Below are positions 3,509 through 46,759 of a DNA stretch of 64,000 nt, piece after piece. Source of the DNA: Elusimicrobiaceae bacterium (lineage in GTDB: Bacteria > Elusimicrobiota > Elusimicrobia > Elusimicrobiales > Elusimicrobiaceae); assembly GCA_045593185.1 (NCBI GenBank), contig JAZNWD010000016.1, forward strand, positions 21,781-85,780. Direction: 5' to 3'. Made by a program: the position numbers and the translations under genes. Below the pieces are notes generated by a model. The model ran no database searches. It was not told where the DNA came from and saw only the letters and a program-made list of their open reading frames with translations. How positions within the stretch are numbered: the first letter of the stretch is position 1; each line of letters starts with the position of its first letter.

Positions 3509-4514
3509 ACCTCTCTATTATTTTTCCAAATCCAGCACGGTATGTTTGATTATCATTGCCGCTGGCGTAGTAACTGCGTTTTTAGTGTACACAAAAGCGC
3601 TGATGATCCCGCTGGTTATTTCCATCTTTTTCTATACGATCTTGGCACAAATGACGTTGTTCTTGCGGCAAAAATTTTCTTTTCCAAAATGGCTTGCTCT
3701 TACCGCCGCCATTTTATTATTTATTGCGTTTTTTATCGGCGTGATTGTATTTACTGCCAACTCTGTAGAAGAGTTTCTAAAGGGAAGTGAAATTTACCGC
3801 CAAAATTTGATTGTTACCGTGTCTGACATATTGGCCCGCTTGCGCGAACACGGCTTGGCATTGGACGCGCACTTTATTGAAAACTACTTGCGCGAAGTGC
3901 CGCTATTTGACTGGGTACGCAATTTGGGCGGACGGTTATTTAGCGTGTTTTCCAGCTTTACGCTAATCATTTTATTTATGGTGTTCTTTTTGTTTGGCAG
4001 CAAGAAAACCCCGCCTATTACCAACCCCGCTATTAAAGAAATGTTGGCCAATGTCTCCGTGTATTTGTCCGTCAAATTGATGGCCTCTATTATTACGGGG
4101 ATATTGGTTTTTACCGTCCTTTTTAGCTTTCAAGTAAAATTAGCTGTGTTATTTGCGTTTTTTGCTTTCTTGCTAAACTTTATCCCCAGTGTGGGGTCTA
4201 TCGCAGCGGTGCTCATTCCGTTGCCTATCTTGTTTTTGCAATTTGGGTTAGGGCCAAAATTCTTTGTGATATTGGCATTGCTGAGTACCATTGAATTTGT
4301 TATTGGCAACCTGGTGGAACCGCGCTTTTTGGGCGAAGGGATGGACTTGCACCCCGCCGCAGTGGTAGGGTCCCTAATTTTTTGGACGCTGGTGTGGGGA
4401 GCCCCCGGGGCGTTTTTGTCCGTACCGATTACGGCCTCGGTGAAAATTGTGCTCAGCAAAATGAAACTAACCCGCCCGGTGGCTGAATTTTTAGCCGGCC
4501 GGCTGCCGAATTAG
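3498..4514 (+). CDS. AI-2E family transporter (PerM/TqsA-like)
   Basis: Multiple TM helices; LNFIPSVGS and GNLVEPRFLG...LHP motifs; start moved to ATG 3498 after GGAG. Confidence 0.85.
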   Translation: MQNKPLYYFSKSSTVCLIIIAAGVVTAFLVYTKALMIPLVISIFFYTILAQMTLFLRQKFSFPKWLALTAAILLFIAFFIGVIVFTANSVEEFLKGSEIYRQNLIVTVSDILARLREHGLALDAHFIENYLREVPLFDWVRNLGGRLFSVFSSFTLIILFMVFFLFGSKKTPPITNPAIKEMLANVSVYLSVKLMASIITGILVFTVLFSFQVKLAVLFAFFAFLLNFIPSVGSIAAVLIPLPILFLQFGLGPKFFVILALLSTIEFVIGNLVEPRFLGEGMDLHPAAVVGSLIFWTLVWGAPGAFLSVPITASVKIVLSKMKLTRPVAEFLAGRLPN

Positions 4515-4533
4515 TTATTTATTTCTACAATAC

Positions 4534-4564
4534 AAAACCCGCCACGGATTGGGTGGCGGGTTTT
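4534..4564. terminator. Bidirectional intrinsic terminator
   Basis: AAAACCCGCCAC-7-GTGGCGGGTTTT between convergent genes. Confidence 0.8.
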
Positions 4565-4581
4565 CATTTTGCGTAAATTAC

Positions 4582-5178
4582 TTATTTGGCGGCTTGTTCT
4601 TGGCGGACTTTTTCAAACAAATTATCCGCAGTGGCACGCTGTAAGAAAGTTTCCCATTCGGCCGGGGTGAGTTCAAAATCATCCATTACGATGTATGAAA
4701 TATCCTTAGCGGCATTTTTCATATCTTTCTTTTGATTCTTATACTCATTTTCCAGTTCTACATAGCGGCTGGCAATGGCGTAGTCAATATCCGCTTGGGT
4801 ATAGCTTTGTGTAGCGGCCGGGGCCGGTTGCTGCTCCTGGGAAGCAGCGGCATTTTCATCCCCTTGAGCCGGTTGCTCTTCCGCCGCCGGCTGCGCTTCT
4901 TGAGAAGCACTTTCCTCTTGCGCAGGTTGAGCATAGGTGCTGTCCTGCGTTGCGGTAGAGGTAGTTTCTTCATCTGTGCGCAAGGGTTTGTCTCCCGCGG
5001 GGGTTAAGAGTTCCTGGTGCGGATCTTTATCTTGAGGAACAAATACAGGTTCCTGTTTATCCATTGAATTTACCACCCGTCCATTTATCAAATTGGAGCA
5101 AGCGGAAGGATTTACAATAAAATAAATGCTTAAAATAATACAGACTAGAATAGCGGCTTTTACTAAAATTTTAATCAT
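4582..5178 (-). CDS. Hypothetical membrane-anchored protein with Q/E/A-rich linker
   Basis: N-terminal hydrophobic segment, low-complexity middle, GGAGG RBS. Confidence 0.65.
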   Translation of the reverse strand: MIKILVKAAILVCIILSIYFIVNPSACSNLINGRVVNSMDKQEPVFVPQDKDPHQELLTPAGDKPLRTDEETTSTATQDSTYAQPAQEESASQEAQPAAEEQPAQGDENAAASQEQQPAPAATQSYTQADIDYAIASRYVELENEYKNQKKDMKNAAKDISYIVMDDFELTPAEWETFLQRATADNLFEKVRQEQAAK

Positions 5179-7432: not shown

Positions 7433-8743
7433 CTATAGTCCGCTGCGGTGATGCAGGAACACTCTGCCCCCCGCAGGTACCTCTACGTTTGCAAAAGTAT
7501 GTTCTCCTATTATACTACCATTTTTGGCCTGCAACAAAAGCCGAATATTTTGTGTGCCGGGGGTTACAAATACCCGTGTCATGTATATTTGCGCCGGCAA
7601 GGTAAACCACTGGCGGGTATCGGCCCTTTCGGTAGCGGCCCCCAAAATACTGACAAACAGCTCCGCTAATTGGCCCAGGGTATCCGCGTGGGGGTTATCG
7701 GACGATGAACGAACCGCGTGGCGGGCTTGTACAGCCGCCGTCCGTTTCAGGATCGCCCGTGTAGCTAACCGGAACCAAATGCCGGGTAATTTCATTTCTA
7801 AATCCTGTGTAGCCAGTTCGGCAATGTCGCTCACTTTTTGTAAGGGAACGCGTACCCCGGCTATATCCACGGTAGAGGACTCCACCAAATAGGACTGCGG
7901 TTCCAAAACGGGGTAAGCCACTGTAATAGCGGAACCGGTCAGCCCGGCATAGAGGGCATTTTGCAACTCGGGCGAAACAGGCCCCTCATCTTCCACCGGA
8001 GTGCTGGCAAAGGCCCAAATATCGTTCCACGCTACTTGAATAGTTTGGCTCTTTTTGAGCGGCACTTGCCCCACGTAATGAAATACAATTACCTCTGCGT
8101 ATTGTTGGGCATGAGAGGGAACGTCAAAGGAAGGGGCGGGCCACCCGCGTTTTTGGTATGCATTGAAAGCGTTTTCCCGTGCGATGCGCGCATCGGAAAG
8201 CTCTCCGGCCGACTCAAAAATAAGACTGGACACATACTGCACAAAGGGGTCATCGTTATATCCCTTTTGGGTAGAGCCGCGCAGATGATCCAAGAAGAAT
8301 ACCGCTTTGCGTGCCTCTACCGCGGCGGCGGAAATATCGTTTAATTGCAAAAAATTTAGCGCACGGTAAAAAAACGTTAACGCGGTTTCGTAATAGGATG
8401 CGTAATAGGGGGTAGTTAAATCATTGATAAGCAAACGCGCACCGGAGGCAGAAATACTTTTGGTGTAAGAATCCGTAATTTTTTGTTGCGCCACTGCAAA
8501 CAGCGCATCACTTTGGGCGGGTTGCTGGGCATCGTGTAATAAAGTCCCGCGGTCCAACGCATAGAGCAGCTCATCGCGCTTGCCATACATTTTACGCGCC
8601 TTGGACTCTACCAAACCGGCCGCTTGGTCAAATTTTCCCTGAGCGACTAAATTATTTACTTCGTGTTTATAGCGTAAAGAAGGCGCCCCACAGGCGGAGC
8701 AACATACAATTGCCACCAACCCCCAGAGCGCATTCTTTTTCAT
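7433..8743 (-). CDS. COG3014-type TPR-like lipoprotein
   Basis: Lipobox CSAC; ERADTRQWFTLPAQI motif typical of this lpoB-associated family. Confidence 0.75.
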   Translation of the reverse strand: MKKNALWGLVAIVCCSACGAPSLRYKHEVNNLVAQGKFDQAAGLVESKARKMYGKRDELLYALDRGTLLHDAQQPAQSDALFAVAQQKITDSYTKSISASGARLLINDLTTPYYASYYETALTFFYRALNFLQLNDISAAAVEARKAVFFLDHLRGSTQKGYNDDPFVQYVSSLIFESAGELSDARIARENAFNAYQKRGWPAPSFDVPSHAQQYAEVIVFHYVGQVPLKKSQTIQVAWNDIWAFASTPVEDEGPVSPELQNALYAGLTGSAITVAYPVLEPQSYLVESSTVDIAGVRVPLQKVSDIAELATQDLEMKLPGIWFRLATRAILKRTAAVQARHAVRSSSDNPHADTLGQLAELFVSILGAATERADTRQWFTLPAQIYMTRVFVTPGTQNIRLLLQAKNGSIIGEHTFANVEVPAGGRVFLHHRSGL

Positions 8744-32997: not shown

Positions 32998-34200
32998 TTA
33001 GTACTTGAACTGTCCGTTTTCGTACACCACTTTTTTAGTACCGTTTTTAAGCGTAGCGGTAACGGTTTTATTCTCGGTATTGATTAAATCCCAATGCAAA
33101 GAGGAATCATTAAACCCAAGTTTTTCTTTGGCCTTTTTATCCAATTTGCTTTGTGGGCCGGCAAATGTATCGGCATAGCTGGCGCCCACGGCTACGTGGC
33201 AGTTGCCGTATTTGCCGCCAAAGTTTTCATCGTAAAGAATATCGGCCATAAACTTGGTAATTTTAGAAAACCGCCGGTCCGTGAGTGAAAATTCGCCAAT
33301 TTGGCTGGCGCCTTTGTCCATAGCCAACATTTTGCGCACAAATTCGGCCCCTTGCTCGGCCCCGGCCTTTATCACACGCCCGTTTTTAAATTCCAATTTA
33401 ACGCCTTTGACGTAATTGCCACTCCGGTAGGAAGACAAATCGGCAAAGTACACGCCGCGGGTACCGCGCCAATCGGGCGAGGTAAAAATTTCAAACGACG
33501 GGATATTGCACCCACCGCCCGCAATAAAACGGCGTTTTTCACCCAGCAGTACTTCAAAATCCATGTGTTGGGTTTGTACCCGCAGGGTTTTAATCGGCAA
33601 GGCGGAAAGCCATGCACCGATTTCGTTAATTTGTCGGGTAACTTCCTTCCATTTTTTAACGGGATCTTTTTCGTTTAAAAAGCATGCGCGTGCCACTTGG
33701 TTGGCATATTCTTTGACGGATAGCCCCGCCCGTTTGGCCAGTTCTGCCGTGGGGTAATTGCACAATGTCCACGAAAAAAGCCCCTTTTGCTCACGTGCGT
33801 CCAAAATTTCGCGCACGGGTTTGCGGGCCACGGCACTTTTGGCCAATTTAGCCGGATCCACCTTTTTAAGGTGCGTTAAATCCAACGGGGCGTGCAATGC
33901 AATCAGCCCATTGATATTGCCCTGGATTTCTTTTTCCCCCACCGGCAAATAGGCCAGCTGTTTGTCATCAGCTAGTTGATAAAAATCCGTCGTAAAATCT
34001 TCCGGTGCCATCCAACGCAACAACACATTGTAACGTTGTGCCAAAAGCTTGCTGTAAACGGCTTTGGCCAACGGCGCGGCGGCCATATCGGTACGCAACA
34101 AAACGCTATCGTACTTTTTAAATTTTCCGTTGCGCCGGGCCGCTTGCAGGGCCCAAATGAGCACATCGGCATATTTTTGAAGTTGCGAGTTTGTAAACAT
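32998..34200 (-). CDS. Aminopeptidase, family M29 (AmpS/PepS-like)
   Basis: NIPSFEIFTSP, GEFSL, LYDENFG...HVAVG.SY, S.LHWDLI. Confidence 0.9.
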   Translation of the reverse strand: MFTNSQLQKYADVLIWALQAARRNGKFKKYDSVLLRTDMAAAPLAKAVYSKLLAQRYNVLLRWMAPEDFTTDFYQLADDKQLAYLPVGEKEIQGNINGLIALHAPLDLTHLKKVDPAKLAKSAVARKPVREILDAREQKGLFSWTLCNYPTAELAKRAGLSVKEYANQVARACFLNEKDPVKKWKEVTRQINEIGAWLSALPIKTLRVQTQHMDFEVLLGEKRRFIAGGGCNIPSFEIFTSPDWRGTRGVYFADLSSYRSGNYVKGVKLEFKNGRVIKAGAEQGAEFVRKMLAMDKGASQIGEFSLTDRRFSKITKFMADILYDENFGGKYGNCHVAVGASYADTFAGPQSKLDKKAKEKLGFNDSSLHWDLINTENKTVTATLKNGTKKVVYENGQFKY

Positions 34201-34256
34201 AAAAAAGTTCCCCCTTTGCTTATTTAATGATATAATAGCAAATATAGAGGTTTTTT

Positions 34257-35009
34257 ATGAAGAAAATTGCACTTATTTTACTCACTGTTTTGGCATACCT
34301 TCCCGGCTGGGCGACCATTACCCCCCTGCCCGAAATTCAGTTTGACCTTATCTATAACACACAAGGCCACCCGCTGATTCAACCCACACAAAGCGAGCTG
34401 GTTTTGTGTCAGGATCGCTTGTGTATGCAGGCAGCTGCGCTGGGCACGTATGGTGCACAGAAATTTTCCTGCGGGCCCGGGGCCTGCCACGCTACCGCGT
34501 ACGAGTTTTCCCCTTTTGCGCGCTTGGTTTTGATGTTTGAAGACGGCTCCGTACGTACCAGCCAAATTTTCTCCATTCCGGACGGACTTATCACTCCGTT
34601 CAACGTGTACGTCAACGATAAAGAATTATCCGTACAAGCGGTGGATACCCCTCCGCATGAGTTCCTGTGGAAACGCCCGCAGGCATGGGGTTCGCTCGTA
34701 TTGATTTTGATCTTGGAAGTACTCTGCGCCGCCGCGTACGTACTCTATACCAAAAAGAGCTTTGCCATTTTGTACGGCGTAGCGATTGCCAACGTAGTGA
34801 CCACTTTTATTACGTGGGGTTTTTTGGCTCATTGGATTACCCAAAGCGCATTGTTGTGGGTTTTCTGCGTGGTGGTAGAAGCTGTGCTAATTGGGCTTAT
34901 CAACCGCAAGGACCTTTTGCCCAAAGAAGCTGCCCTGCTTAGCGTGATTGTTAACGTAACCAGCTACACACTGGGGATGATTATTTCTTTTACGCTGGCC
35001 CAAATCTAA
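34257..35009 (+). CDS. Hypothetical membrane protein (exported N-domain plus C-terminal TM helices)
   Basis: Signal peptide, Cys pairs, about four C-terminal TMs; GAGG RBS. Confidence 0.7.
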   Translation: MKKIALILLTVLAYLPGWATITPLPEIQFDLIYNTQGHPLIQPTQSELVLCQDRLCMQAAALGTYGAQKFSCGPGACHATAYEFSPFARLVLMFEDGSVRTSQIFSIPDGLITPFNVYVNDKELSVQAVDTPPHEFLWKRPQAWGSLVLILILEVLCAAAYVLYTKKSFAILYGVAIANVVTTFITWGFLAHWITQSALLWVFCVVVEAVLIGLINRKDLLPKEAALLSVIVNVTSYTLGMIISFTLAQI

Positions 35010-35776
35010 AAAATCAGTAATACTACGGCCATGAGTGCCATGCCGCTCAGCACGCCGCTAATCACTTGGTGCCCGTGACCGTAATCGTGCGCGGTGGGCA
35101 ACAATTCATCTAGGGCCAAATACACCATAATCCCGGCCACGGCAGCAAATAGTACGCCCAAAATAGCTTCATGCAAGAAGTAATCTAAAATAAAATATCC
35201 AACCACTGCGCCCACCGGTTCGGCCATGCCGCTGGCCGCACTGGCCCAAAATGCCTTTTTACGGCTGCCGGTAGAGTGATAGACGGGCAACGCCACAGCC
35301 ATACCTTCGGGAATGTTGTGAATAGCCACAGCCAGTGCAATGGAAATTCCCAACGTCAAATTGTCTAGCGCAGAGAAAAACGTGGCCAGCCCCTCCGGAA
35401 AGTTGTGCAGTGTAAGTGCCAAGGCCGTAAACAGTCCGGTCTGTTTAAGTTTAGCGGTTTGTTTAAGTGTTTCTTCTTTTACATGTAACGGCGGCAGGCA
35501 GCGGTCCACCCCAAAAGCCAACATCATCCCCACAAAAAACAGCCCCACACACCCCCACGCACCCGTGCTTGGGCCGTACAAACCACTTAATGTAGTTTTG
35601 GCGTGGGGCAAAATTTCCATAAACGAAACATACAACATCACCCCGGCCGAAAATCCTAGCCCTATTGCGAGGGCTGAAAAATTTTCTTTCTTCATAAAAA
35701 AGGACAACAGTCCCCCCACCGCACTGGCGGCACCGGCAAAAAAACTAAGTAAAAAAGCTATAGTTAAAGCAGTCAT
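35006..35776 (-). CDS. zupT: ZIP-family zinc transporter
   Basis: GFSAGVMLYVSF.EI, LHNFPEGLA, IHNIPEG, LDELLP. Confidence 0.92.
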   Translation of the reverse strand: MTALTIAFLLSFFAGAASAVGGLLSFFMKKENFSALAIGLGFSAGVMLYVSFMEILPHAKTTLSGLYGPSTGAWGCVGLFFVGMMLAFGVDRCLPPLHVKEETLKQTAKLKQTGLFTALALTLHNFPEGLATFFSALDNLTLGISIALAVAIHNIPEGMAVALPVYHSTGSRKKAFWASAASGMAEPVGAVVGYFILDYFLHEAILGVLFAAVAGIMVYLALDELLPTAHDYGHGHQVISGVLSGMALMAVVLLIF

Positions 35777-35824
35777 GGTTTAACTATAGCAAATTGCACG
35801 CCAAAACGGCACTCGTTTTTAAGG

Positions 35825-38017: not shown

Positions 38018-39232
38018 CTATTTGCGGTACGGATGCAAGGACTCCTTATAAATAGCCCATACCGTGTCTTTGCTGGCTTGCGTCGGTGCAAGGCCCAGTA
38101 GCCCGCCCAATGACGGCGTTTCAAAGGCAAGGCACACTAATTTTTCTACATCTTGCTCCGTAAAGCCCTCGTCTGCCAGTTTATGGGTAGCCCCCACACT
38201 AAAGAGCCATTTCTCGATGCCGTGCGCAGCCAGGTCGGCTTCCTCTGCGTTCCCTTTTAAGCCGGGCACCATGGGCTTTAGCACTTCGGCCAAGGTCTTG
38301 GGCTTGGCCTTATAGATTTGCTTGATAACCGCCGGCAGCAGCATCGCCAACCCTAGCCCGTGCGTCAGGTTCGGGTTCACACCCGAAAGCGGATGCTCCA
38401 GCGCGTGGGTATAGTGCAACAGCCCGTTATCAAAGCTTAGCCCCGCAATCAGCGCGGCATACGTTAAAAAGTAACGCGCCTCCAAATTCTGAGGGTCTTT
38501 TAACGCCACGGGCAGATATTTGTACACTAACCATGTCACCGCAATAGCCAGGTCCACCGCGTAGGGCGAGGTGGTTTTGGTAGTGGCGGCTTCTACCACG
38601 TGATTAACCGCATCGATGGACACGTAGCGCGTTTGCTCCTCACTAAGCCCGGTCATTAACGCCGGGTCATCAATGGCATAGAGCGGGTAAATACACGGCA
38701 GCGCAATAGCGGGCTTGTAGTTTTTTTCCTCAATAGAAACTACGGCAAACTGGTTGGCCTCGGACCCGGTTCCGTGTGTTAAGTTGATCGCCACAATGGG
38801 CGCGGCCTGCGTGGGCGTAAATTTAAACTCGTAAAGTTCCTCGGCCGTTTTCCCGGGATACTTCATCAAGATTGCCACACTTTTGCCCGCGTCAATGGCG
38901 GACCCGCCCCCTATAGCCAATACGGCTTGCGCGCCAAAGTCGTGCGCCATTTGGGCGGCCTGATTAACGTGATGTGTATTGGGGTTGGGCGTTACTTTGT
39001 CGTAATGTACATAGGTGATGCCATGCTTGGCAAACGCTTTCACCACGTGATCCCACGCCCCGGTTTTTTTGTAGGCACCTTTACCGGTAACCACCATCAG
39101 TTTGGTTAAACCGCGGGCCTTGAGATCGGCACAAATGTCATCTATTTTTTCAATGGCACCCACGCCCAAAAATACGGTGGTGCGGGCGCGAATTTCGCGG
39201 ATTTGGCGAATATCAATTTCTTGTTCCCACAT
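38018..39232 (-). CDS. Iron-containing alcohol dehydrogenase
   Basis: AIGGGSAIDAGK, THGTGSE, DAVNHVVEA, HALEH...HG.GL. Confidence 0.92.
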   Translation of the reverse strand: MWEQEIDIRQIREIRARTTVFLGVGAIEKIDDICADLKARGLTKLMVVTGKGAYKKTGAWDHVVKAFAKHGITYVHYDKVTPNPNTHHVNQAAQMAHDFGAQAVLAIGGGSAIDAGKSVAILMKYPGKTAEELYEFKFTPTQAAPIVAINLTHGTGSEANQFAVVSIEEKNYKPAIALPCIYPLYAIDDPALMTGLSEEQTRYVSIDAVNHVVEAATTKTTSPYAVDLAIAVTWLVYKYLPVALKDPQNLEARYFLTYAALIAGLSFDNGLLHYTHALEHPLSGVNPNLTHGLGLAMLLPAVIKQIYKAKPKTLAEVLKPMVPGLKGNAEEADLAAHGIEKWLFSVGATHKLADEGFTEQDVEKLVCLAFETPSLGGLLGLAPTQASKDTVWAIYKESLHPYRK

Positions 39233-39324: not shown

Positions 39325-39355
39325 CAAGGGATAGCCCAAAGTTTACTGCGCCCCA
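39325..39355. repeat. Outermost att copy (tRNA 3' end plus downstream flank)
   Basis: CAAGGGATAGCCCAAAGTTTACTGCGCCC is 27/29 identical to 45504-45532. Confidence 0.85.
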
Positions 39356-39486
39356 AGCGTTGGACTACCGACGGAGCATGTACGAATTTTCTGCCATACT
39401 TTTCCCAAGTCTGCCAAAGACAGGATTTTTCTGCCATATACATGTGCTGCCATCTTCGAGTGGTTCAAGTTTTTCTAGCGCAGATA

Positions 39487-39525
39487 TAGGCCTTTTTCCT
39501 AGGCGCAAATAGGTCTTTTGGCCCT
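39487..39525 (+). promoter_or_regulatory. Tandem TAGGYC operator-like sites
   Basis: TAGGCC-TTTT at 39487 and TAGGTC-TTTT-GGCCCT at 39510; ATAGGYCTTTTGGCCCTGGTTTT matches the reverse complement near 62860-62882 at 22/23 positions. Confidence 0.6.
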
Positions 39526-39573
39526 GGTTTTATTTTAGATTACTTTTATATTGTAGGTAGAGGAGGGTCTCTT

Positions 39574-40947
39574 ATGAAAGAATTAATAAAAAAGATTGCT
39601 TTTTTATTGAGTTTATTTTTGTGGATTCATATTGCTGCTGCGGCAGGAACCTTTTCGGTATCTTCCGGTTTAGTCCAACCAACCATTTTGCAAAATCAAT
39701 TAACCAAGCAAATTGAACAACAAATTCAAGAGAAAACAGATCGTCCTTGGCAGCTGGCCATCATTTCTGTTTCGCACCCAACAGCAGGAGAATTGGAAAA
39801 ATCGGTTCTTGAAGCTATGGGGAAAAATAGCGCTTTAAAACAAGTTGTTTTGGTAAGAGTATCGTCGGTCCCTTACGCAACGGAATTTAAGAGGGATTTA
39901 AATACAAAACGCATTATTAAAATAAATCTTTCTTCCAGAATTCCCCGGTCTTTTTCTTTATCATCTATACGCCAAGTGCTCAGACGCTTAGATCACTCCA
40001 ATTCAAAATTTTATACGGGCCTGGTAATTGATGCCCATGGTACCGGCAATGCCATGAGTACTATGATGGAAAGTGATAACAAAATCTCTATTCGGAAACT
40101 GTTTGAGGAAATAAAACAGGAAGGAATAAAAATAGATGTATTGGAATTAAAATCTTGTTCCATGGGATCTATTTCCACCTTGTATCACGCAACTAAAAGT
40201 GGCATGGTGGATTATTTGCTCGCTTCACCACCTGTGCTTTTTCAATCTTCTACGGATGTGGGATTGTTGTTTGCGGCCTCGCAAGTCCCGGGGGCACTTT
40301 CTCGCCCGGAGACAGCCGCACGAGCGGCCCTTACAGTGGGGGGAAAGGTTTTTGTTGAAAATATAGAAAAAAATTTAGGAAAGACCATTCCCCCGTTCGC
40401 TACCGCTACAGTAGGTTATTACTTACCGGAGCTATATCCTCTCCTAAGAAACTGGGGAGAATCTTTGTTGGGGATAGAAATTGCTGCAGTGGTTGAAAGG
40501 GAGTCTTTACTTCTTAAAAATGAGTTGTGGCCTATTGATCCGTCGCCTCGTTCTTCTGAGGAAGGAATAATGGTGAGTGAATTGTCTCAAAGGAGAAAAA
40601 GTGCAATGTCTTTTGATTCTTTTTTGAAGAATATACTTAACTATTCTATGGATACCAGCACCTGGGCGGAGGAGAATAAAGAAGCGTATGAGAAAGCATT
40701 TGTGCTGTTCTCAAATGATTCTGCCACATTGCAACGCCATTTAAATACTGCTATTAAGTTTGGACTGTGTTACAAAAATAGGGATTTTTATCCGGCAGCT
40801 AAGGCAGAGGATATAGATAGCTGGCCTGAAGAATGTTTGGGGAAGTTTTCACTTAATTTCGAACAGATGTTGGACCTGACAATTGAGGTACAATCTCATT
40901 TTTCACTTGAAAACTACAAAGAACGCCTTAAATCTACCGACCCATAG
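39574..40947 (+). CDS. Secreted clan CD (clostripain/C11-like) cysteine peptidase
   Basis: Signal peptide; VIDAHGTG (His), LELKSCSMG (Cys) and DYLLAS in the C11 order. Confidence 0.55.
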   Translation: MKELIKKIAFLLSLFLWIHIAAAAGTFSVSSGLVQPTILQNQLTKQIEQQIQEKTDRPWQLAIISVSHPTAGELEKSVLEAMGKNSALKQVVLVRVSSVPYATEFKRDLNTKRIIKINLSSRIPRSFSLSSIRQVLRRLDHSNSKFYTGLVIDAHGTGNAMSTMMESDNKISIRKLFEEIKQEGIKIDVLELKSCSMGSISTLYHATKSGMVDYLLASPPVLFQSSTDVGLLFAASQVPGALSRPETAARAALTVGGKVFVENIEKNLGKTIPPFATATVGYYLPELYPLLRNWGESLLGIEIAAVVERESLLLKNELWPIDPSPRSSEEGIMVSELSQRRKSAMSFDSFLKNILNYSMDTSTWAEENKEAYEKAFVLFSNDSATLQRHLNTAIKFGLCYKNRDFYPAAKAEDIDSWPEECLGKFSLNFEQMLDLTIEVQSHFSLENYKERLKSTDP

Positions 40948-41272
40948 TCTTTGTTCATTTGTGGGGGCATCAATAAGCCCTTCTGTAACGGCAGGGCTCA
41001 AAATTTTTCCTAGTTTCCCGGGTTTATATTGTTATTTCGATTTATCCCTGCTTCCAATTAGATGGACCTTTACTATGAACAGAAACCATTGCCGCTTTCC
41101 TTATAGTTTACTACCCTTAACTTTGCTTATTTTGCCAAAGTTCTCGTCGGAGGGTCAAAATAGAAATTTTGCGGAGCGGACTTGAACCGAAATTTTGCTA
41201 ATTTTTGGGGATAAAATGGATTAGTTCTCGACGAGAAAAATTTAGGCCCCGCGATTGCGGAGCCTAAAATTT

Positions 41273-41285
41273 ACTTCGCCCACCA
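41273..41285. repeat. att copy (tRNA 3' end)
   Basis: ACTTCGCCCACCA vs ACTGCGCCCACCA, next to a terminator hairpin at 41240-41270. Confidence 0.8.
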
Positions 41286-41448
41286 AGCGGTGTTCTACCG
41301 ACGATGGAGTGACTAAAATAGTGCCCTATTTCCGTATAGTCCTCTATCGTAAACTTTGCTAAATTTATGTGTGTTTTTGTGGTTCCACGTTTACTAGCGC
41401 GGATAGCTAGGTTTTAAAATATGTTACAATGCAACAAGGGAGAAAATT

Positions 41449-42204
41449 ATGAAAAAATTGATATGCTATATAATTTCGTTTCTAATTATACTGCTTGTAA
41501 TTGGTATACGGATATGGTTAGATAAGGACAATCAGTTGCTTAGAGCCTCTAAAAGAGGAGATCAAAACAAAGTAGTCAACTTGTTGAAGCGGAAAGCCGA
41601 CGTTAATATTAAATCGATAGATGGACAAACTCCTCTATTATTTGCTAGTCAAAATGGCCACTTAGAGATGGTAAAGGTTCTAATAGAAAAAGGAGCCGAT
41701 GTTAATGCTAAAAATAAAGGAGATATTACGCCTTTAATGTGTGCTGTCGGATATGGCCACTTAGAAATAGCAAAATATTTAGTAGATCATGGAGCAAAGA
41801 TAAATGCTAGAGATAAACATGGGGAGACTCCATTGAGAATTGCTGGTCAAAATGGCCGTCTGGAAATAATAGAATATTTGGTAGAGCAGGGAGCCGATGT
41901 TAATGCTAAAAATACTGCAGGAATGACTCCATTGTTAGGTGCGGTTATGACATGCCCCCTGGAAACAATAAAATATCTAGTAACCCATGGGGCGGATATC
42001 AATGCCAAAGACCAAAATAGTGTTACTCCTTTAATGTTAGCCACTTTATATGGCCAACCAGAGGTAGTAAGATATTTGATAGAACAAGGGGCGGATATTC
42101 ATGCCAAAGCCAAAGATGGTAACACCGCTATTGAATTAGCTAGACAAACGGGGGATAATGCAAAAGTAGAGTTGCTTCAAAAAGCGGAAGAAACAAAAAA
42201 ATGA
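41449..42204 (+). CDS. Ankyrin-repeat protein with N-terminal signal/TM
   Basis: About six GxTPL..A...GH.E.VKYL.E.GADVNAK repeats. Confidence 0.92.
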   Translation: MKKLICYIISFLIILLVIGIRIWLDKDNQLLRASKRGDQNKVVNLLKRKADVNIKSIDGQTPLLFASQNGHLEMVKVLIEKGADVNAKNKGDITPLMCAVGYGHLEIAKYLVDHGAKINARDKHGETPLRIAGQNGRLEIIEYLVEQGADVNAKNTAGMTPLLGAVMTCPLETIKYLVTHGADINAKDQNSVTPLMLATLYGQPEVVRYLIEQGADIHAKAKDGNTAIELARQTGDNAKVELLQKAEETKK

Positions 42205-42260
42205 AATATTTGTTTTTATCATAAACCGCTCCTAATTGGGGCGGTTTTTTCTACCCAAAA

Positions 42261-42320
42261 GCATAAAAAGAGGCCCGCTCTCTTCTGAGAACGGGCCTTC
42301 GTCAATCACTACGCCCACCA
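42261..42320. repeat. Direct repeat (terminator + att copy), copy 1
   Basis: GCATAAAAAG(AG)GCCCGCTCTCTTCTGAGAACGGGCCTTCGTCAATCACTRCGCCCACCA, repeated at 45271-45328. Confidence 0.9.
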
Positions 42321-42447
42321 AGCGATGTTTTCTCGACGGGTATGTACGAATTTTCTGCCATACTTTTTTTGAACTTGCCAAAATTAGTTTTTAAATGCGC
42401 ACAAGATATATATCTATCGTCGACAGGTTCAAGTCGTTACAGCACAG

Positions 42448-43458
42448 TTAATCTACATTCGCCTTCTTTGGAATATATTTAATGGCATCGTGAAGCGTTT
42501 TCGGAGTAAGATGGGCGTAGATTTCAGTCATTTTGATGCTGCTATGACCTAATAATTTACTTACCCTGTACAAATCCACCCCGTTCTGCACAAGGTGACT
42601 CGCAAAGGTATGACGCAATTTGTGCAAGAAACTGGCAACCTTAGCTTTCTTGGCGATTTTTCTGTAAAAGGCCGTTAGGAAATATTGACTTCCACGAGAA
42701 TGCCCCACATTGACAACGAACTCGTTTTTAGCGGACTTTTTAGCTTTTTTTAGGGCTTCCCTTAATTCTTTGCTCATTGGGACAAAACGGTGGTTTTCCG
42801 TTTTGGCAGGAGCAATATAGAGTTGTCTATTTCTAAAATCGACGTCTTGCCAACGCAGTTGCACCATTTCTCCTCTCCGCAATCCAGCATCAACCCCCAA
42901 AAGAACAACTAATTTCCAAGCCGGAGAAGGGCAAACTGCAAGTATTTTGTTTATTTCTTCTACAGAATGGAATACAATTCGTCCTCTAGGAGTTTTAATT
43001 TTAGTTATCCCCGACCAATCTTGCTTAGGAATAAATTCCCATCTTTCAGCATGGTGCATGATTGCTTTAAGGCATTGAATCAGGCGGTTAATATTGTGCT
43101 TCCCCAAATTTTTATGAAGCATATACTCTTTAACTTTTTGTAGAGTGGTTGGTGTTATTTCATGTAAAAACCTAGGACAATCTACTTCTTCCAAGCATCT
43201 AATGGCAATATGTGTCCTTTTAATTGTATTCTTGGCACGTTCTAAAGCCATAAATTGAAACAATCTGTCTTTAAAATGTTCCCAGGTCATTTCTACAACT
43301 ATCTTTTCTTTTAAAGCATTTCTCCTCTCAATTAATTTGGAATACTTTAATTGGGCTATCCTTAATTTAGAGGTTTGGAGAGATATTCTGTGTCGATGAC
43401 CTAATGCGTCGTGATAGTCTGCATAGTAAATATTCCCATGTAATTTTTTTATTGCCAT
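42448..43458 (-). CDS. Tyrosine recombinase / phage-type integrase
   Basis: GLRRGE (R), HKLRHTFAS (HxxR), LLGHSSIKMTEIYAH (H, Y); short N-terminal arm-binding-like region; start moved to ATG 43458 after GGAGG. Confidence 0.92.
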   Translation of the reverse strand: MAIKKLHGNIYYADYHDALGHRHRISLQTSKLRIAQLKYSKLIERRNALKEKIVVEMTWEHFKDRLFQFMALERAKNTIKRTHIAIRCLEEVDCPRFLHEITPTTLQKVKEYMLHKNLGKHNINRLIQCLKAIMHHAERWEFIPKQDWSGITKIKTPRGRIVFHSVEEINKILAVCPSPAWKLVVLLGVDAGLRRGEMVQLRWQDVDFRNRQLYIAPAKTENHRFVPMSKELREALKKAKKSAKNEFVVNVGHSRGSQYFLTAFYRKIAKKAKVASFLHKLRHTFASHLVQNGVDLYRVSKLLGHSSIKMTEIYAHLTPKTLHDAIKYIPKKANVD

Positions 43459-43546
43459 ACTATTTCCTCCCTTATTGCGCAAACTTGGCTATTTGCGTTG
43501 TATGGTGTATATTGTAGGGAATATTTGTGTTTAATTTAGCAATTCG

Positions 43547-44053
43547 TTATAAAATATCGCTAAATATTTTATTCACGCGTTGCAAGATTATCAACATTGT
43601 GTGAAAGAAAAGTACAATTAGTCCAAAATAAATCATGGACATGAAAAAGCGTATGAATGCGAACGTTGTTCCTATGGTTGATGCTTTAAAAAGGATAAAA
43701 AAGAGGGACAAAACAATTATAAACACTCCAATTAAAATTCCAAAAGAGATATTATAGATTGTTTCCTTGATTATTTGAAAATCTTTTCCTTCTGGTTTGT
43801 CAATCTTGTCAACAAGTAAAAATAATGCACTAATTAAAAATCCTGATAAAATTGAAAAAGCTGTCAACATTATTTCAATAACAGATTCTTTGAGACAGTG
43901 AAAACACGTTGCAACACTTGCAAGTAGTATTATGAATACTACTGTTATGCCAATTTCTATCCACGACGTTTGCTGAGTAGTATTGTCGTAAAAGGTTTTG
44001 CAATGGTTTTTAACAATATTCCAACAGTTTAATCTAGAAAAAAATAATTTCAT
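43547..44053 (-). CDS. Four-TM membrane protein, island cargo
   Basis: Four hydrophobic helices; AT-rich; 11 bp downstream of its partner gene. Confidence 0.7.
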   Translation of the reverse strand: MKLFFSRLNCWNIVKNHCKTFYDNTTQQTSWIEIGITVVFIILLASVATCFHCLKESVIEIMLTAFSILSGFLISALFLLVDKIDKPEGKDFQIIKETIYNISFGILIGVFIIVLSLFFILFKASTIGTTFAFIRFFMSMIYFGLIVLFFHTMLIILQRVNKIFSDIL

Positions 44054-44064
44054 TTATTTCTCCT

Positions 44065-45006
44065 TTAGTCAATATATTGTCGTAATTCGGTAATAATATT
44101 TTCTTCTTCTTTTTTTAAATCGCTCAGATTAGGGTGACAACCATCTTCTCTTTTAAGATGGCTAAGATCGAAACGTAAAACACTATTTTCAGGGTGCATC
44201 ACATCGATAACTCTTTGGGTTTTCCCTACCTGAATAGCACATTTTAAATCTTCAAAATCATAAAGATCAATGCCTGTAAGATTTTTAATTTTTATCAAAG
44301 CCTTGTCTTTGTCTTGTTCAAGCAATATGTCGTTAACATCCGAGGAAAATGCACCTGGTTTGATGGGAGAAATATTCAATTCACACCGAGCCTGTGAAGT
44401 ATTAGAAGCGGAGATATTAGATGTCTGCTTGAAATTGGTAGCTGTAATTCGCTTAATTTTCCCATTTTTAATATATTCTTTCATGGAACGGGTTCTCAAT
44501 GTAATATTTTCTTGTTCTACATTGATTTGTTGGCTTGCATAAATTTCTCTGAATTTTCGTAGTAAAGCATTAACGAAAGGTCTGGTAATACTATTAACCC
44601 CCAATGTTTGTGTCAATAAAATTGCATTTTGTTTATTAGGAGCTAAATGAAATAAAAAATGCAATTTGATAAGTTCAACATCATTTACGCTTCGATGATA
44701 GCTACTTTGGGAAGTGGGTTTAATAATTTCTGAATCAATCCCATTATTACCGGCAATAATATATCCGGAAATAAAATCTCGCTTGGGAGCAAGCAACAAA
44801 TCTTTTTTTGAGATGTAAAATTGGCACTGCAATCCTGTTTCTAAAGGAATAAGGTCGTTCTTCTGGGTGGGCAAATGTGTACGTAAAATTTCATCAACAG
44901 TCTCAAATAAATTAATTGGAAGTTTATCAATCTTATAGGAGATCGGATTTTTACTAATAGTTGAAAACCTAAAAATATTCGCTACACAACCAATTTTTTG
45001 TGACAT
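44065..45006 (-). CDS. Soluble hypothetical protein, island cargo
   Basis: 313 aa, AT-rich, GAGG RBS, operonic with the 4-TM gene. Confidence 0.75.
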   Translation of the reverse strand: MSQKIGCVANIFRFSTISKNPISYKIDKLPINLFETVDEILRTHLPTQKNDLIPLETGLQCQFYISKKDLLLAPKRDFISGYIIAGNNGIDSEIIKPTSQSSYHRSVNDVELIKLHFLFHLAPNKQNAILLTQTLGVNSITRPFVNALLRKFREIYASQQINVEQENITLRTRSMKEYIKNGKIKRITATNFKQTSNISASNTSQARCELNISPIKPGAFSSDVNDILLEQDKDKALIKIKNLTGIDLYDFEDLKCAIQVGKTQRVIDVMHPENSVLRFDLSHLKREDGCHPNLSDLKKEEENIITELRQYID

Positions 45007-45270
45007 ATATCACCTCATTTATTAATATAAAATAATTATACTATTTTAATATATAATTATTAATTTATTTTATGAAAAATGAAAATGAATATGTGTATAT
45101 TAAAGAAAACACACTGTAGATATTAGATATTTCTAAAATTGATGGGGTTTATAGAAGACATCATGAACTAATTAATAGTGCCCAAAATAGTGCCTAAAAA
45201 ATGCCACCTTCCTGTACAGCTTAACCTCCTTAACTTTGCTAATCTTGCCAAGATTTTTCGTCATAGAAAG

Positions 45271-45330
45271 GCATAAAAAGGCCCGCTCTCTTCTGAGAAC
45301 GGGCCTTCGTCAATCACTGCGCCCACCAGG
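45271..45330. repeat. Direct repeat (terminator + att copy), copy 2
   Basis: See 42261-42320; ACTGCGCCCACCAGG is identical to 45524-45538. Confidence 0.9.
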
Positions 45331-45452
45331 GGACTTGGTCACAAGTCCGCTCGTTGACCCTCGCGGCTCGCGACCCCGCCTCGCCATGCTCGCCTTTCGC
45401 CCGCGCTCTGCGCGACCTCAAACTCGCATAAGGTTCCGGCTTTCAAGTCCTG
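45327..45452. other. GC-rich structured mini-element bounded by inverted tRNA T-arm-like ends
   Basis: CAGG(GG)ACTTG ... CAAGTCCTG ends; internal hairpin GGACTTG-GTCA-CAAGTCC; CTCGC repeats. Confidence 0.55.
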
Positions 45453-45490
45453 TCGCGCATAAAGCAGTTTATGCGCTGTGGGCATAAAAA

Positions 45491-45519
45491 TTTGGGCTAT
45501 CCGCAAGGGATAACCCAAA
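45491..45519 (-). terminator. Terminator downstream of tRNA(CAT)
   Basis: TTTGGGCTATCC...GGATAACCCAAA with T-tract on the minus strand. Confidence 0.7.
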
Positions 45520-45525
45520 TTTTAC

Positions 45526-45599
45526 TGCGCCCACCAGGACTTGAACCTGGAACCCATCGATTATGAGTCGATTGCTCTAACCAATTGAGCTATAGGCGC
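45526..45599 (-). tRNA. tRNA with CAT anticodon, probably tRNA-Ile2 (lysidine); elongator Met not excluded
   Basis: GCGCCTA acceptor, AGCTCAATTGGTTAGAGC D-arm, ATCGA-CTCATAA-TCGAT anticodon arm, GGTTCAAGTCC T-arm; C4-G69 and C5-G68 as in TilS substrates; no encoded CCA. Confidence 0.9.
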
Positions 45600-45668: not shown

Positions 45669-45739
45669 TCCGGGATGGTGTAATGGTAACACGGGTGCCT
45701 CTGGAGCATTAATTCTAGGTTCGAATCCTAGTCCCGGAA
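45669..45739 (+). tRNA. tRNA-Gln (CTG)
   Basis: TCCGGGA/TCCCGGA acceptor with U1-A72, anticodon loop CTCTGGA, GGTTCGAATCC T-arm. Confidence 0.9.
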
Positions 45740-45826: not shown

Positions 45827-46759
45827 TCAGTTTCCCTGATCAACGCTCCCTTCTTTTGCCTGTTCCTCAACGGCTGTTTCAGTGCCTTGAGCGACGGGCA
45901 GTTCCTCTTGCGTTTTGGCAGGGGCTAATTGAGTAAGCGGCCCTTGATCGGTGGGTTTAGGATCTGCCTGCAGCGGGGAATCCATCTTTTCTTCCGCACG
46001 CTGTCCCTCAGCGGCTTTTTCTAAACTTTCCGTCTGTTTGAGTACTTTTTGAAAGATATTTTCCATCTCGGTGGGGGCGGTGTTTTCCTCGCTGCGCTTG
46101 CCCGTTTGTTTTTCTTTAGAGACCCGGGCTAAAGGCATAAATTGTTTAAATTGTTCGCGCGCCTCTAACACTTCCAACATGAGTAACACTTGGTGCCATT
46201 CCGTTTTTTCCTGAGCGGATAATTGTTCGTTTTCGTTGAGTAACTCCGCCGCTGTTTTTCCGTTTCCATCCTTTGCCGCAGGGCTGGCGTGAGCGGCCAA
46301 CAATACTTTAATAACCGGGGCTATGTTATGCCGGGCCGCTAGCAAAAGTGCTTGATTTTTATTTTCCGTTTGCGCGGCGCTGTTTCCCCCGTGTTTGGCC
46401 AATGCCAACACAATTTCCGGTTGCGTATTATACTGTGCGGCAATCATCAGCGGGGTAAAACCGTGTTTATCTTTAGCAAAGGGATCCGCCCCGGCCACAA
46501 TCAGTTTTTGCAACAATACCGGCTCGGTGGCGTACCTGGCCGCGTACGAAAGCGCCGTTTGGCCGGATTTATCGCGTGCGTTCACATCCGCGCCGCCTTC
46601 TAAAAGTTGGCGTGTTTTTGACACGTCATTTTCTTCCAGTGCGCGCATCAAGCGTGTTGTTCCGCGCCAGTCCACTTCTTGCGCAAAATGCCGGTAGAGT
46701 AATCCCCCGGCAACCAAACCGATACACACCCCTAACCAAATCCACGTAGTTTTTTTCAT
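45827..46759 (-). CDS. Ankyrin-repeat protein with N-terminal TM and low-complexity tail
   Basis: GADVNARDKSGQTALSYAA, KDKHGFTPLMIAA, KDGNGKTA. Confidence 0.88.
   Translation of the reverse strand: MKKTTWIWLGVCIGLVAGGLLYRHFAQEVDWRGTTRLMRALEENDVSKTRQLLEGGADVNARDKSGQTALSYAARYATEPVLLQKLIVAGADPFAKDKHGFTPLMIAAQYNTQPEIVLALAKHGGNSAAQTENKNQALLLAARHNIAPVIKVLLAAHASPAAKDGNGKTAAELLNENEQLSAQEKTEWHQVLLMLEVLEAREQFKQFMPLARVSKEKQTGKRSEENTAPTEMENIFQKVLKQTESLEKAAEGQRAEEKMDSPLQADPKPTDQGPLTQLAPAKTQEELPVAQGTETAVEEQAKEGSVDQGN

Follow-up and report, generated by a model that had tools for sequence, protein, structure and literature searches.

A tandem array of compact, mostly single-gene units at the 3' end of tRNA-Met(CAT) in an Elusimicrobiaceae bacterium

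Cis-mobilizable elements (CIMEs) and the tandem accretion of mobile elements at one target gene are already known, and are usually described as large decayed islands. Tandem accretion is known from elements related to the integrative conjugative elements (ICEs) ICESt1 and ICESt3 of Streptococcus thermophilus and from tandems of integrative mobilizable elements (IMEs) and CIMEs (PMC5704250), and among the ssrA-specific islands of Dehalococcoides 15 are without an integration module and were proposed as CIMEs (PMC3146451); the concept behind the locus reported here is already contained in these two descriptions. We describe a tandem array at the tRNA-Met(CAT) gene of an Elusimicrobiaceae bacterium from the ruminant gut (GCA_045593185.1, contig JAZNWD010000016.1), within a stretch of 64,000 nucleotides that is referred to as the window throughout. 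No description of such arrays was found for Elusimicrobiaceae in the literature. We read the locus as the outcome of repeated site-specific recombination at the tRNA 3' end, in which one unit (unit 3) is autonomous, two (units 1 and 2) are CIME-like and one (unit 4) is empty, and assign this reading a probability of roughly 0.7.

Tandem units and their integrase

The preliminary description of this DNA had placed copies of the tRNA 3' end at 45316, 42308, 41273 and 39345, all of which we confirm, the last of them with a 2-nt deletion (Table 1). The 13-mer ACTGCGCCCACCA has six matches in the window at up to two mismatches, a number reached by 0 of 100 shuffles, and all core copies are directly oriented with respect to the 3' end of tRNA-Met. 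At core D the tRNA homology reaches as far as CAAGTCC, with a 2-nt insertion, and to the left of core A about 20 nt of a tRNA-flank hairpin are left over (39325-39344). Loci elsewhere are referred to by L numbers and sequencing runs or their contigs by X numbers, the metagenome evidence consisting of assembled Logan contigs at 2-10x depth. In run X12 the core A junction is present at >99% identity with the CA in place and the core intact, which indicates that the deletion in core A is recent. The distal core is shortened in two genomes, with CA lost in the window (39345-39355) and in L001, from another species (8330-8340, TGGTGGGCG-GT). A core-like sequence with one mismatch at 35205-35217 (ACTGCGCCCACCG) was considered as an att site and rejected as a chance match, as it falls within a gene for a ZIP-family transporter and its conservation in L184, a locus of a close relative, is that of coding sequence.

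The cores bound four units, whose sizes and gene content are as the preliminary description had them: 195 bp for unit 4, 3.0 kb for unit 3, 1.0 kb for unit 2 and 1.9 kb for unit 1, with GC contents of 0.57, 0.34, 0.38 and 0.40, respectively, and 0.48 in the flanks. The earlier interpretation of the units as a tandem series with att boundaries, created at the tRNA 3' end through site-specific recombination, is supported, and we consider it very probable that the array arose by such accretion. Reading with the tRNA direction, a hairpin and a T-run follow every core. The earlier claim of a terminator hairpin at each copy holds at cores B and C, where the scan returned minus-strand terminators at 41268-41241 and 42298-42271, and at cores D (45280-45305) and E (45491-45519), where the hairpins were found by sequence reading, whereas site A keeps half a hairpin. 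The core-side hairpins may serve as replacement terminators for the tRNA, and a terminator re-supplied by every unit would explain how the tRNA gene stays functional after repeated insertion. Along the tRNA direction, a unit would thus be built as core, P' arm with rho-independent terminator, cargo, P arm of about 135 nt and next core, with the P' terminator re-supplying the end of the tRNA transcription unit whenever that unit lies first. The cargo would consist of one or two genes with their own promoter in either orientation, and as both orientations are used, each gene needs its own promoter.

Unit 3 would be the autonomous mini-element, combining a phage-type tyrosine integrase with two unknown genes. 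The integrase has a phage-type catalytic domain and a SAM-like domain, with the R...HxxR...H...Y motifs all there, and scores under every curated NCBIfam cut-off, including that of the integron integrase. The recombinase is intact, tRNA 3'-end repeats lie at both ends and the tRNA itself is intact, which places unit 3 among tRNA-targeting tyrosine-recombinase elements. Among 3,710 homologues of the integrase, the sole source-named one and the closest genome matches are Elusimicrobiaceae metagenome-assembled genomes from rumen or gut. Relatives at 62-74% identity terminate prophages or large islands (L163, L167, L191 and L003), carrying M15 peptidase, NRDD, DUF4314, DUF2924, NYN and SNase genes in the L163 prophage, McrBC and methylases in L167, and UvrD, a kinase and HSP70 in L003. 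Relatives at 45-46% identity are found on viral contigs of 29-34 kb, and more distant ones at tRNA-Arg and tRNA-Thr, in convergent geometry. The 313-aa cargo protein has zero matches in Pfam, PADLOC, PHROGs, NCBIfam and PDB sequences, and for the 168-aa protein all families tried in Pfam, PADLOC, PHROGs and NCBIfam were below threshold. Exact-sequence look-up returned no records for the 313-aa protein or the ankyrin protein of unit 2, and one short Logan contig only for the 168-aa protein.

Table 1. Positions of the tRNA genes, core copies, arms and cargo genes in the window
Feature	Position	Strand	Support or remark
tRNA-Gln	45669-45739	+	ARAGORN, Rfam
tRNA-Met(CAT), intact, integration target (attB)	45526..45599	-	ARAGORN; Rfam RF00005, 72.9 bits
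Core E, ACTGCGCCCACCA on + strand (last 11 nt of tRNA and next 2 nt)	45524..45536	-	
Unit 4, ~195 bp, gene-less	45329..45523	-	sequence reading
Core D	45316..45328	-	13/13 match
Unit 3, mini-element with integrase and two cargo genes	42321-45315		between cores C and D
Unit 3 P' arm (tRNA-proximal): terminator hairpin 45280-45305, followed by TTAGCAAAGTT and a tandem pair of TTTTNGGCAC motifs	45175..45315	-	
Unit 3 cargo, 313-aa protein	44065..45006	-	
Unit 3 cargo, 168-aa hydrophobic, probably membrane protein	43547..44053	-	
Unit 3 tyrosine integrase, 336 aa from ATG (open reading frame reaches 43482)	42448..43458	-	PF00589 1.4e-32; phrog_1 3e-57
Unit 3 P arm (distal), alpha type, integrase stop codon to core C: TATGGCAGAAAATTCGTACA, inverted T-arm box CAGGTTCAAGTC	42321..42447	-	
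Core C	42308..42320	-	12/13 match
Unit 2 P' arm, short: terminator hairpin 42271-42298 and T-run only, abuts the ankyrin gene's own terminator	42205..42307	-	
Unit 2 cargo, 251-aa ankyrin-repeat protein, hydrophobic N-terminal stretch (probable anchor)	41449..42204	+	Ank 2e-52
Unit 2 P arm, beta type: TTAGCAAAGTT...GGGCACTATTTTAGTCAC...CGTCGGTAGAACACCG	41286..41405	-	
Core B	41273..41285	-	12/13 match
Unit 1 P' arm, long: terminator hairpin 41241-41268, CTCGTCGAGAAC, direct GGTTCAAGTCC box, TAAGCAAAGTT	40948..41272	-	
Unit 1 cargo, 457-aa C11/clostripain-like clan-CD cysteine peptidase	39574..40947	+	PF03415 weak
Unit 1 P arm, alpha-prime type, three TATGGCAG / TTTGGCAGA motifs	39356..39490	-	
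Core A, last copy	39345..39355	-	ACTGCGCC--CCA (2-nt deletion)

Arm types and the integrase-less units

An arm of about 135 nt precedes every core but D and E and ends in ...CGTCG(9-11 nt)GCT. Upon alignment of the window arms with those of five other loci, two main types emerge, alpha, with the signature ...TATGGCAGAAAATTCGTACA..., and beta, with ...TTAGCAAAGTT...GGGCACTATTTTGGTCAC..., both of which are dense in repeated TTTGG-CA-like motifs. Core D is preceded not by the CGTCG...GCTT arm but by a third, gamma type, which corrects the preliminary description. The arm homology reported in the preliminary description is real, at 75-83% within the window and with BLAST E-values of 1e-12 to 1e-38 against arms of other genomes, but the arms belong to distinct types and do not form one uniform family. 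Within the window it relates 39378-39418 to 42342-42382 (83%, the first 26 nt identical), 42246-42325 to 45254-45333 (83%) and 41095-41138 to 45208-45251 (75%). The arms are asymmetric and range from 55 to 320 nt; as a further correction, the hairpin-side arm of the ankyrin unit measures only about 55 nt. Long P' arms of about 200-320 nt with TTTGG-CA-type motifs occur in unit 3, unit 1, L006 and L163, with that of unit 1 being homologous to those of L006 and L163, and the P' side is hairpin-only in unit 2, in two units of L184 and in unit 2 of L001.

The motifs TTTGGNCAC and TATGGCAG are repeated in P arms and long P' arms, and related motifs (TTTGGACAC) crowd the att region of L167, which has the 62% integrase relative, making TTTGG-CA-type motifs plausible arm-type binding sites; we take them to be probably those of the integrase, judging from sequence. 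The arm motifs gave no matches or chance matches only in IMG/VR, and a metagenome-wide search with the att pattern CGTCG-N10-11-GCTTGGTGGGCG returned, among the matches listed, mostly chance hits on unrelated soil contigs, with only L098 being relevant. At the outer end of the P arm, at the integrase stop codon, lies AACTGCGCTGTAACGACTTGAACCTG in the tRNA sense, resembling an inverted tRNA 3' end (ACTGCGC...GACTTGAACCTGG). The inverted CAGGTTCAAGTC box of unit 3 at 42423-42434 matches at 12 of 12 positions, above all shuffles; the box is weaker at 39454-39483 and 41380-41390, so that units 1 and 2 are borderline. A direct GGTTCAAGTCC box is also seen in the long P' arms, about 87 nt past the core.

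The block of arm, core and hairpin is compact (200-350 nt), exists without cargo in unit 4, and has every arm bounded by an inverted pseudo-att box and a core, as would be expected if it were a dispersed repeat similar to miniature inverted-repeat transposable elements (MITEs) or repetitive extragenic palindromic (REP) sequences, or a series of local tRNA-fragment duplications; moreover, the window comes from a metagenome-type contig, so that an assembly artefact at repeats could be suspected. However, the arm motifs are confined to the array, with the block occurring within the 64 kb only downstream of tRNA-Met and in all other loci beside tRNA-Met or an integrase, and the DNA separating the repeats is of foreign GC and entirely different from one close relative to another. 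Additionally, the longest exact repeat common to two junctions is 39 nt, junction A is confirmed independently by run X12, and independent contigs from eight runs bear out where unit 3 begins and ends. We therefore regard a dispersed repeat, a local duplication or an artefact as scarcely credible.

In integrase-bearing units the arm spans the sequence from the integrase stop codon to the core, and in integrase-less units the arm homology begins at the same position, the equivalent of the integrase stop codon (five integrase-less alpha arms). Four of the integrase-less arms constitute an alpha-prime clade (the window arm W_A, L001-8330, L163-15684 and L184-12598), being 77-86% identical to each other and 66-67% to integrase-linked alpha arms, and each of them is accompanied by different cargo. 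For the unit 1 arm itself, identity is 77-79% with the integrase-less arms of L001, L163 and L184, and 66% with alpha arms linked to an integrase. Among the window, L001 and L006, the alpha arm on the integrase side shows 97-98% identity; between the window (42321-42447) and L006 (1727-1853) this identity breaks at the stop codon, beyond which the integrases are about 74% identical in nucleotides and 71% in amino acids. Near-identical P arms beside integrases of 71% identity, with the break at the stop codon, suggest that the arms act as discrete modules that are either exchangeable or strongly constrained, and the conservation could reflect either very strong constraint or recent arm exchange. 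The beta arm of unit 2 was aligned with six other beta arms, two of which adjoin integrases of a subclade found in L003 and L163, which has about 71% identity and is absent from the window. The gene-less unit bears a third arm type, and the presence of several arm types in the array renders doubtful the earlier proposal that all units are served by one integrase.

That the small units retain att arms and are without integrase, as earlier stated, is supported, since a tblastn search for integrase remnants was negative for units 1, 2 and 4 and for the integrase-less units of L001, L006, L163 and L184, with nothing below E = 0.3 against units 1 and 2. Units 1 and 2 would accordingly be non-autonomous and CIME-like, carrying a predicted secreted C11-like peptidase and a putatively membrane-anchored ankyrin protein between att arms. 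The missing remnants, the uniform boundary and the separate arm clade would be compatible with a single old deletion and later turnover of cargo, or else with an origin independent of an autonomous element. One alternative is that the units are inert fossils, successive full-size prophages or islands that decayed by internal deletion, kept both att ends and are now fixed, so that the genomes differ through homologous replacement and vertical divergence and not through cassette mobility. Integration, decay to a CIME and new integration is the published default (PMC5704250), the integrase relatives terminate full prophages with moron-like cargo beside att (NYN, SNase, McrBC and a restriction-modification system), and the last cores of the window and L001 bear small deletions. 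Furthermore, the terminal arms W_A and that of L184 are positional homologues (88.5% over 96 nt), and W_A is 78% identical to the L001 terminal arm, which equals the LysRS identity of those two genomes. Random deletion should, however, leave integrase or phage fragments and ragged ends, of which none were found, and a single boundary is common to the integrase-less arms; the alpha-prime arms form their own clade with different cargo per genome, and arms conserved at about 80%, against 78-86% for coding DNA, exceed the expectation for neutral intergenic DNA. The zero integrase fragments, the shared arm start and the separate alpha-prime clade make the integrase-less units look like a designed module and not like debris, and we hold the fossil explanation to be unlikely.

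Unit 4 is made up of the F terminator hairpin (45491-45519), a degenerate tRNA-Met copy in inverted orientation and the gamma arm ending ...GACCAAGTCC at core D. The inverted copy covers the 3' half to two-thirds of tRNA-Met (45412-45459, + strand) with a score of 39, where shuffled sequences averaged 15 and reached at most 29. The copy is some 125 nt away from core D, and the genuine tRNA faces it tail-to-tail on the other side of the F hairpin. In L184 the unit occupies the same place at 92.7% conservation, a level like that of a vertically inherited remnant, which again fits decay, and it is found at the far end of the array in L001. Its placement between tRNA and array in the window and L184, and beyond the array in L001, suggests an old arms-only unit of which both cores are usable targets, with the window array having entered the distal core and the L001 array the tRNA itself. 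Gene-less units of this kind occur in the window, in L184 (two copies) and in L001. The GACAGGACTTGAAAG block of unit 4 is repeated in the unit-4-like sequences of L184 (two copies) and, more weakly, of L001.

Polymorphism and proposed mobility of the array

Copies of unit 3 that are about 96-99% identical are found in eight gut metagenome runs, ruminant and other (X1-X7 and X9), in which the window neighbours are absent and the copies terminate exactly at cores C and D. L001 is a syntenic tRNA-Met locus (LysRS 78% in nucleotides, tRNA region 84%), in which the integrase and P arm are 95% identical in nucleotides to those of the window and the P' arm, placed directly after tRNA-Met, 93%. The neighbours of unit 3 vary. 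To the left of core C, the window has the ankyrin unit, X7 and X9 have a GCCCGCAC hairpin and L001 a AGCCCTACC hairpin, and in X4 and X6 a B-type hairpin is found with the ankyrin unit absent, the joints skipping 1035 and 1039 nt; these joints are ambiguous over no more than 4 nt and are therefore not k-mer chimeras. To the right, unit 4 is present in the window and the tRNA follows directly in X2, X3, X4, X9 and L001; the joining of core D to the tRNA in these four runs means that unit 4 is absent there. Unit 3 has moved recently between strains and species, and in all likelihood it is or recently was mobile. In L001, a gene at 4151-4903 beside the 97%-identical integrase encodes NYN-domain cargo of the PADLOC candidate defence family HEC-09 (5e-30), which differs from the window cargo; NYN and SNase genes adjoin the integrase in the L163 prophage too.

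Four further arrays of the same build and with unrelated cargo were found in a close relative and in other Elusimicrobiaceae, among genomes and metagenome contigs. The close relative (L184/L185, GCA_017963745.1; 98.6% identity over 34001-35795, PIF1 87%, LysRS 86%) carries tRNA-Met and unit 4, followed by genes of 327, 196 and 159 aa reading -, - and +. The L001 array holds the NYN gene with the integrase, a 129-aa gene, a 354-aa ankyrin gene and the unit-4-like block at its far end; that of L163 comprises a prophage with integrase, an Na/Pi transporter, and a racemase with NfeD; and in L006 the integrase is followed by a 514-aa ankyrin protein and a 506-aa protein. A comparison of the window, L184, L001, L163 and L006 revealed no cargo common to two or more arrays. 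The polymorphism of order and content anticipated in the preliminary description is thereby borne out across related genomes and samples, with X4 and X6 lacking the ankyrin unit and L184 bearing three entirely different one-gene units. This last case also speaks against decayed fossils: none of the window's three cargo units is present in L184 despite flanks that are 86-98% identical, and all five of its cores are perfect in an array without an integrase.

We infer that integrases of the family, whether from unit 3, a resident prophage or an incoming element, could recombine any two cores, and that such core-core recombination would excise, insert and reshuffle single units or blocks, in cis with an integrase-bearing neighbour or in trans, resulting in fast turnover of one-gene cargo at a fixed chromosomal site. 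Mobilisation of the integrase-less units in trans is plausible, and for these units still to be mobilisable we would give slightly less than even odds.

Several observations weigh against this reading. For units 1 and 2, neither a circular junction nor an empty site from the same strain was seen in the Logan contigs (2-10x), as would also be expected of inert fossils, and the assembled contigs of public runs held no unambiguous composite circle with the adjacent integrase element. A circular attP was weighed as a reading of the joints that go back in X1 (45289 to 39353, as well as 45319 to 41277) and rejected, given their diverged linkers and the absence of the ankyrin gene from X1; such joints in X1 and X8, whose two sides are separated by linkers that have diverged or by unknown sequence, are more readily explained by different array orders than by circles. 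Additionally, no excisionase candidate was found in unit 3, and there was no case of one integrase-less unit recurring in identical form at a second position. The hairpin-only P' sides, in unit 2 and several units of the relatives, are without arm motifs, and such units might be poor integration substrates when circular and isolated, while the beta arm of unit 2 and the gamma arm of unit 4 may lie outside the substrate range of the window integrase. The 2-nt deletion of the distal core in the window and L001 could lock the distal unit in place, and homologous recombination between conserved arms could give the same content polymorphism without an integrase.

A more far-reaching version of the reading, which we put forward tentatively and think more probably wrong than right, takes the integrase-less units for minimal cassettes of a self-propagating family, traded among Elusimicrobiaceae and mobilised in trans by phage-type integrases, with tRNA-Met as a standing exchange site for one-gene cargo. 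Each cassette would then carry a single gene between a P' end with a terminator and a P arm of 135 nt that has the inverted pseudo-att box as its limit, the exchange site would persist even in integrase-less arrays such as L184, and cargo would also enter prophages by fusion at the arm boundary, as L191 suggests. In L191 (2745-4990; also L192 and L193), a prophage with a 74% integrase, a restriction-modification module (N6/N4 methyltransferase, TaqI-like endonuclease and HTH) is flanked on one side by the integrase stop codon and a partial boundary box, and on the other by a core with a complete alpha-prime arm. It looks as if a neighbouring integrase-less unit had been fused into the prophage through loss of the intervening att site, which would amount to gene capture. 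On the 535-kb rumen contig L003 (10001-15528), the segment of integrase, arm, core and F hairpin has the opposite orientation to that of the window with respect to ankyrin-LysRS, and there is no tRNA within 10 kb; the arrangement points to an inversion of DNA between two att sites or to an island of very large size.

Upon examining the cargo of units 1 and 2, the protease-like label given earlier to the 457-aa protein proved reasonable, the protein being a clan-CD cysteine peptidase by its weak PF03415 match, by H155-G156 and S194-C195, which are invariant across five homologues, and by Foldseek, in which the C11 proteases 6mzo and 6nag (E = 1e-7) rank first, followed by legumains (model pLDDT 61). 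A hydrophobic N-terminal leader, judged from the translation, indicates that it is probably secreted. A homologue (53%) lies outside the array in L184 (8001-9341), directly after PIF1 and without att arms, and the upstream region of the gene travels with it (window 39510-40947 against the homologous L184 upstream region). The Fe-ADH gene at 38018-39232, which the window has between PIF1 and core A, is missing from the equivalent place in L184. The placement of the L184 peptidase and the Fe-ADH difference imply that the variable zone reaches past the last recognisable core. The ankyrin gene is probably transcribed in vivo, as metatranscriptome contigs match it with 0-1 mismatches (X30 and X31). 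A copy about 95% identical with other flanks occurs in X8 and X13, where the match spans the gene only and not the arms; the ankyrin homologue search was dominated by generic ankyrin repeats, and this copy was not among its results. Beside the tRNA pair, at 45827-46759 (- strand), a conserved chromosomal gene encodes another ankyrin-repeat protein with a hydrophobic N-terminal leader, and the same gene is found in L001 (2820-3455) and L003 (13128-13943). Ankyrin proteins are also array cargo (window unit 2, L001 unit 3 and L006), which hints at selection for host-interaction proteins at this locus.

Comparison with described systems

The resemblance to integrons is functional only, in that both are arrays in which recombination sites delimit small units, mostly of one gene, whose cargo is highly variable and which are occasionally empty. 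The pdif/Xer modules show the same functional resemblance, as arrays of small, mostly single-gene units between recombination sites. The sites here differ in deriving from a tRNA end with putatively lambda-style arms, and the integrase lies within one mobile unit. As a claim of membership, the integron analogy of the preliminary description fails. Integrons employ an IntI-type integrase with a characteristic insertion, attC sites that are imperfect palindromes and recombine as folded single strands, an attI beside intI at which cassettes enter, and cassettes that mostly have no promoter of their own and share one orientation. The integrase scores 90.3 bits against the IntI model TIGR02249 (cut-off 265) and 41.6 against NF011946 (cut-off 435); the junctions are direct copies of the tRNA-Met 3' end and not attC or attI sites, their hairpins being tRNA-oriented terminators with T-runs; and there is no common promoter (Pc) or single cassette orientation, units 1 and 2 being opposite to unit 3 and L184 being mixed. 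An integron-like platform in a wider sense, with one resident integrase that captures and shuffles single-gene cassettes as an evolved function, would find backing in the arrays of one-gene units with very diverse cargo at the same site in at least five genomes, in the empty units and in the uniform arm boundaries. Against it, the integrase is an ordinary phage-type enzyme of prophage ends, sits inside a mobile unit and is missing from the L184 array, arm types number three or four at the least within one array, promoter regions are individual to each gene and cargo orientation is mixed, and no attC-like folded site, attI or Pc is present. Such a platform is very improbable, and the locus is a case of tandem accretion with CIME-like units and not an integron.

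The tycheposons of Prochlorococcus likewise use tyrosine recombinases at tRNA 3' ends, with newcomers pushing older elements inward, and the islands of that genus hold partial tRNA repeats, degenerate remnants and variable niche-adaptive cargo (bioRxiv 10.1101/2020.12.28.424599). Tycheposons differ in measuring 10-20 kb and in carrying integration and replication (primase/helicase) modules, some resembling phage-inducible chromosomal islands (PICIs) (bioRxiv 10.1101/2020.12.28.424599); in unit 3, Pfam, PHROG and PADLOC searches returned no primase, helicase, polymerase or PICI-like packaging module. Their remnants are described as without clear boundaries (bioRxiv 10.1101/2020.12.28.424599), whereas the integrase-less units here are sharply bounded and have complete arms. 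In Dehalococcoides, many islands similarly lie in tandem after one small RNA gene, with direct repeats of its 3' end of about 20 bp, additional conserved sequence beside the repeat and strain-specific content, but these islands rely on a serine recombinase and a six-gene integration module, target the transfer-messenger RNA (tmRNA) gene, are multi-gene (rdhA operons) and belong to another phylum (PMC3146451).

There is a close likeness to CIMEs, whose att sites are related to those of an integrase-bearing neighbour, which are without recombination genes and stacked at the 3' end of a tRNA or other target gene through site-specific insertion at an att site already present, and for which co-mobilisation with the neighbour and gene capture have been proposed (PMC5704250). 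At the present locus, cores A, B and C with the alpha-prime and beta arms resemble integrase-side arms (window, L001, L003, L006 and L163), and units 1 and 2 hold one gene each and no recombination or transfer genes of their own. Compared to ICE- and IME-linked CIMEs, the integrase here is phage-type and prophage-linked, without conjugation or mobilisation genes. Furthermore, the units are much smaller than known CIMEs (0.2-3.6 kb, mostly one gene), have no decay remnants and one uniform arm boundary, and bear arms of separate lineages, a pattern more suggestive of a family that propagates than of products of single deletions.

Should mobilisation of the small units in trans take place, they would offer a simple exchange route for single secreted or surface proteins (the C11-like peptidase and ankyrin proteins) in a host-associated bacterium, as well as for defence genes (NYN/HEC-09 and the restriction-modification system), and phage integrases would be linked to cassette-like gene flow without integron machinery. 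The pattern is found in five arrays from different genomes and metagenome contigs of Elusimicrobiaceae, a largely uncultured gut and rumen family. Overall, the locus differs from the described systems in its extreme compactness, its empty units and its link to a phage-type integrase in Elusimicrobiaceae, and its non-autonomous partner is cut down to arms and one gene, or to arms alone, with sharp and uniform boundaries and with arm lineages that stand apart from those linked to an integrase.

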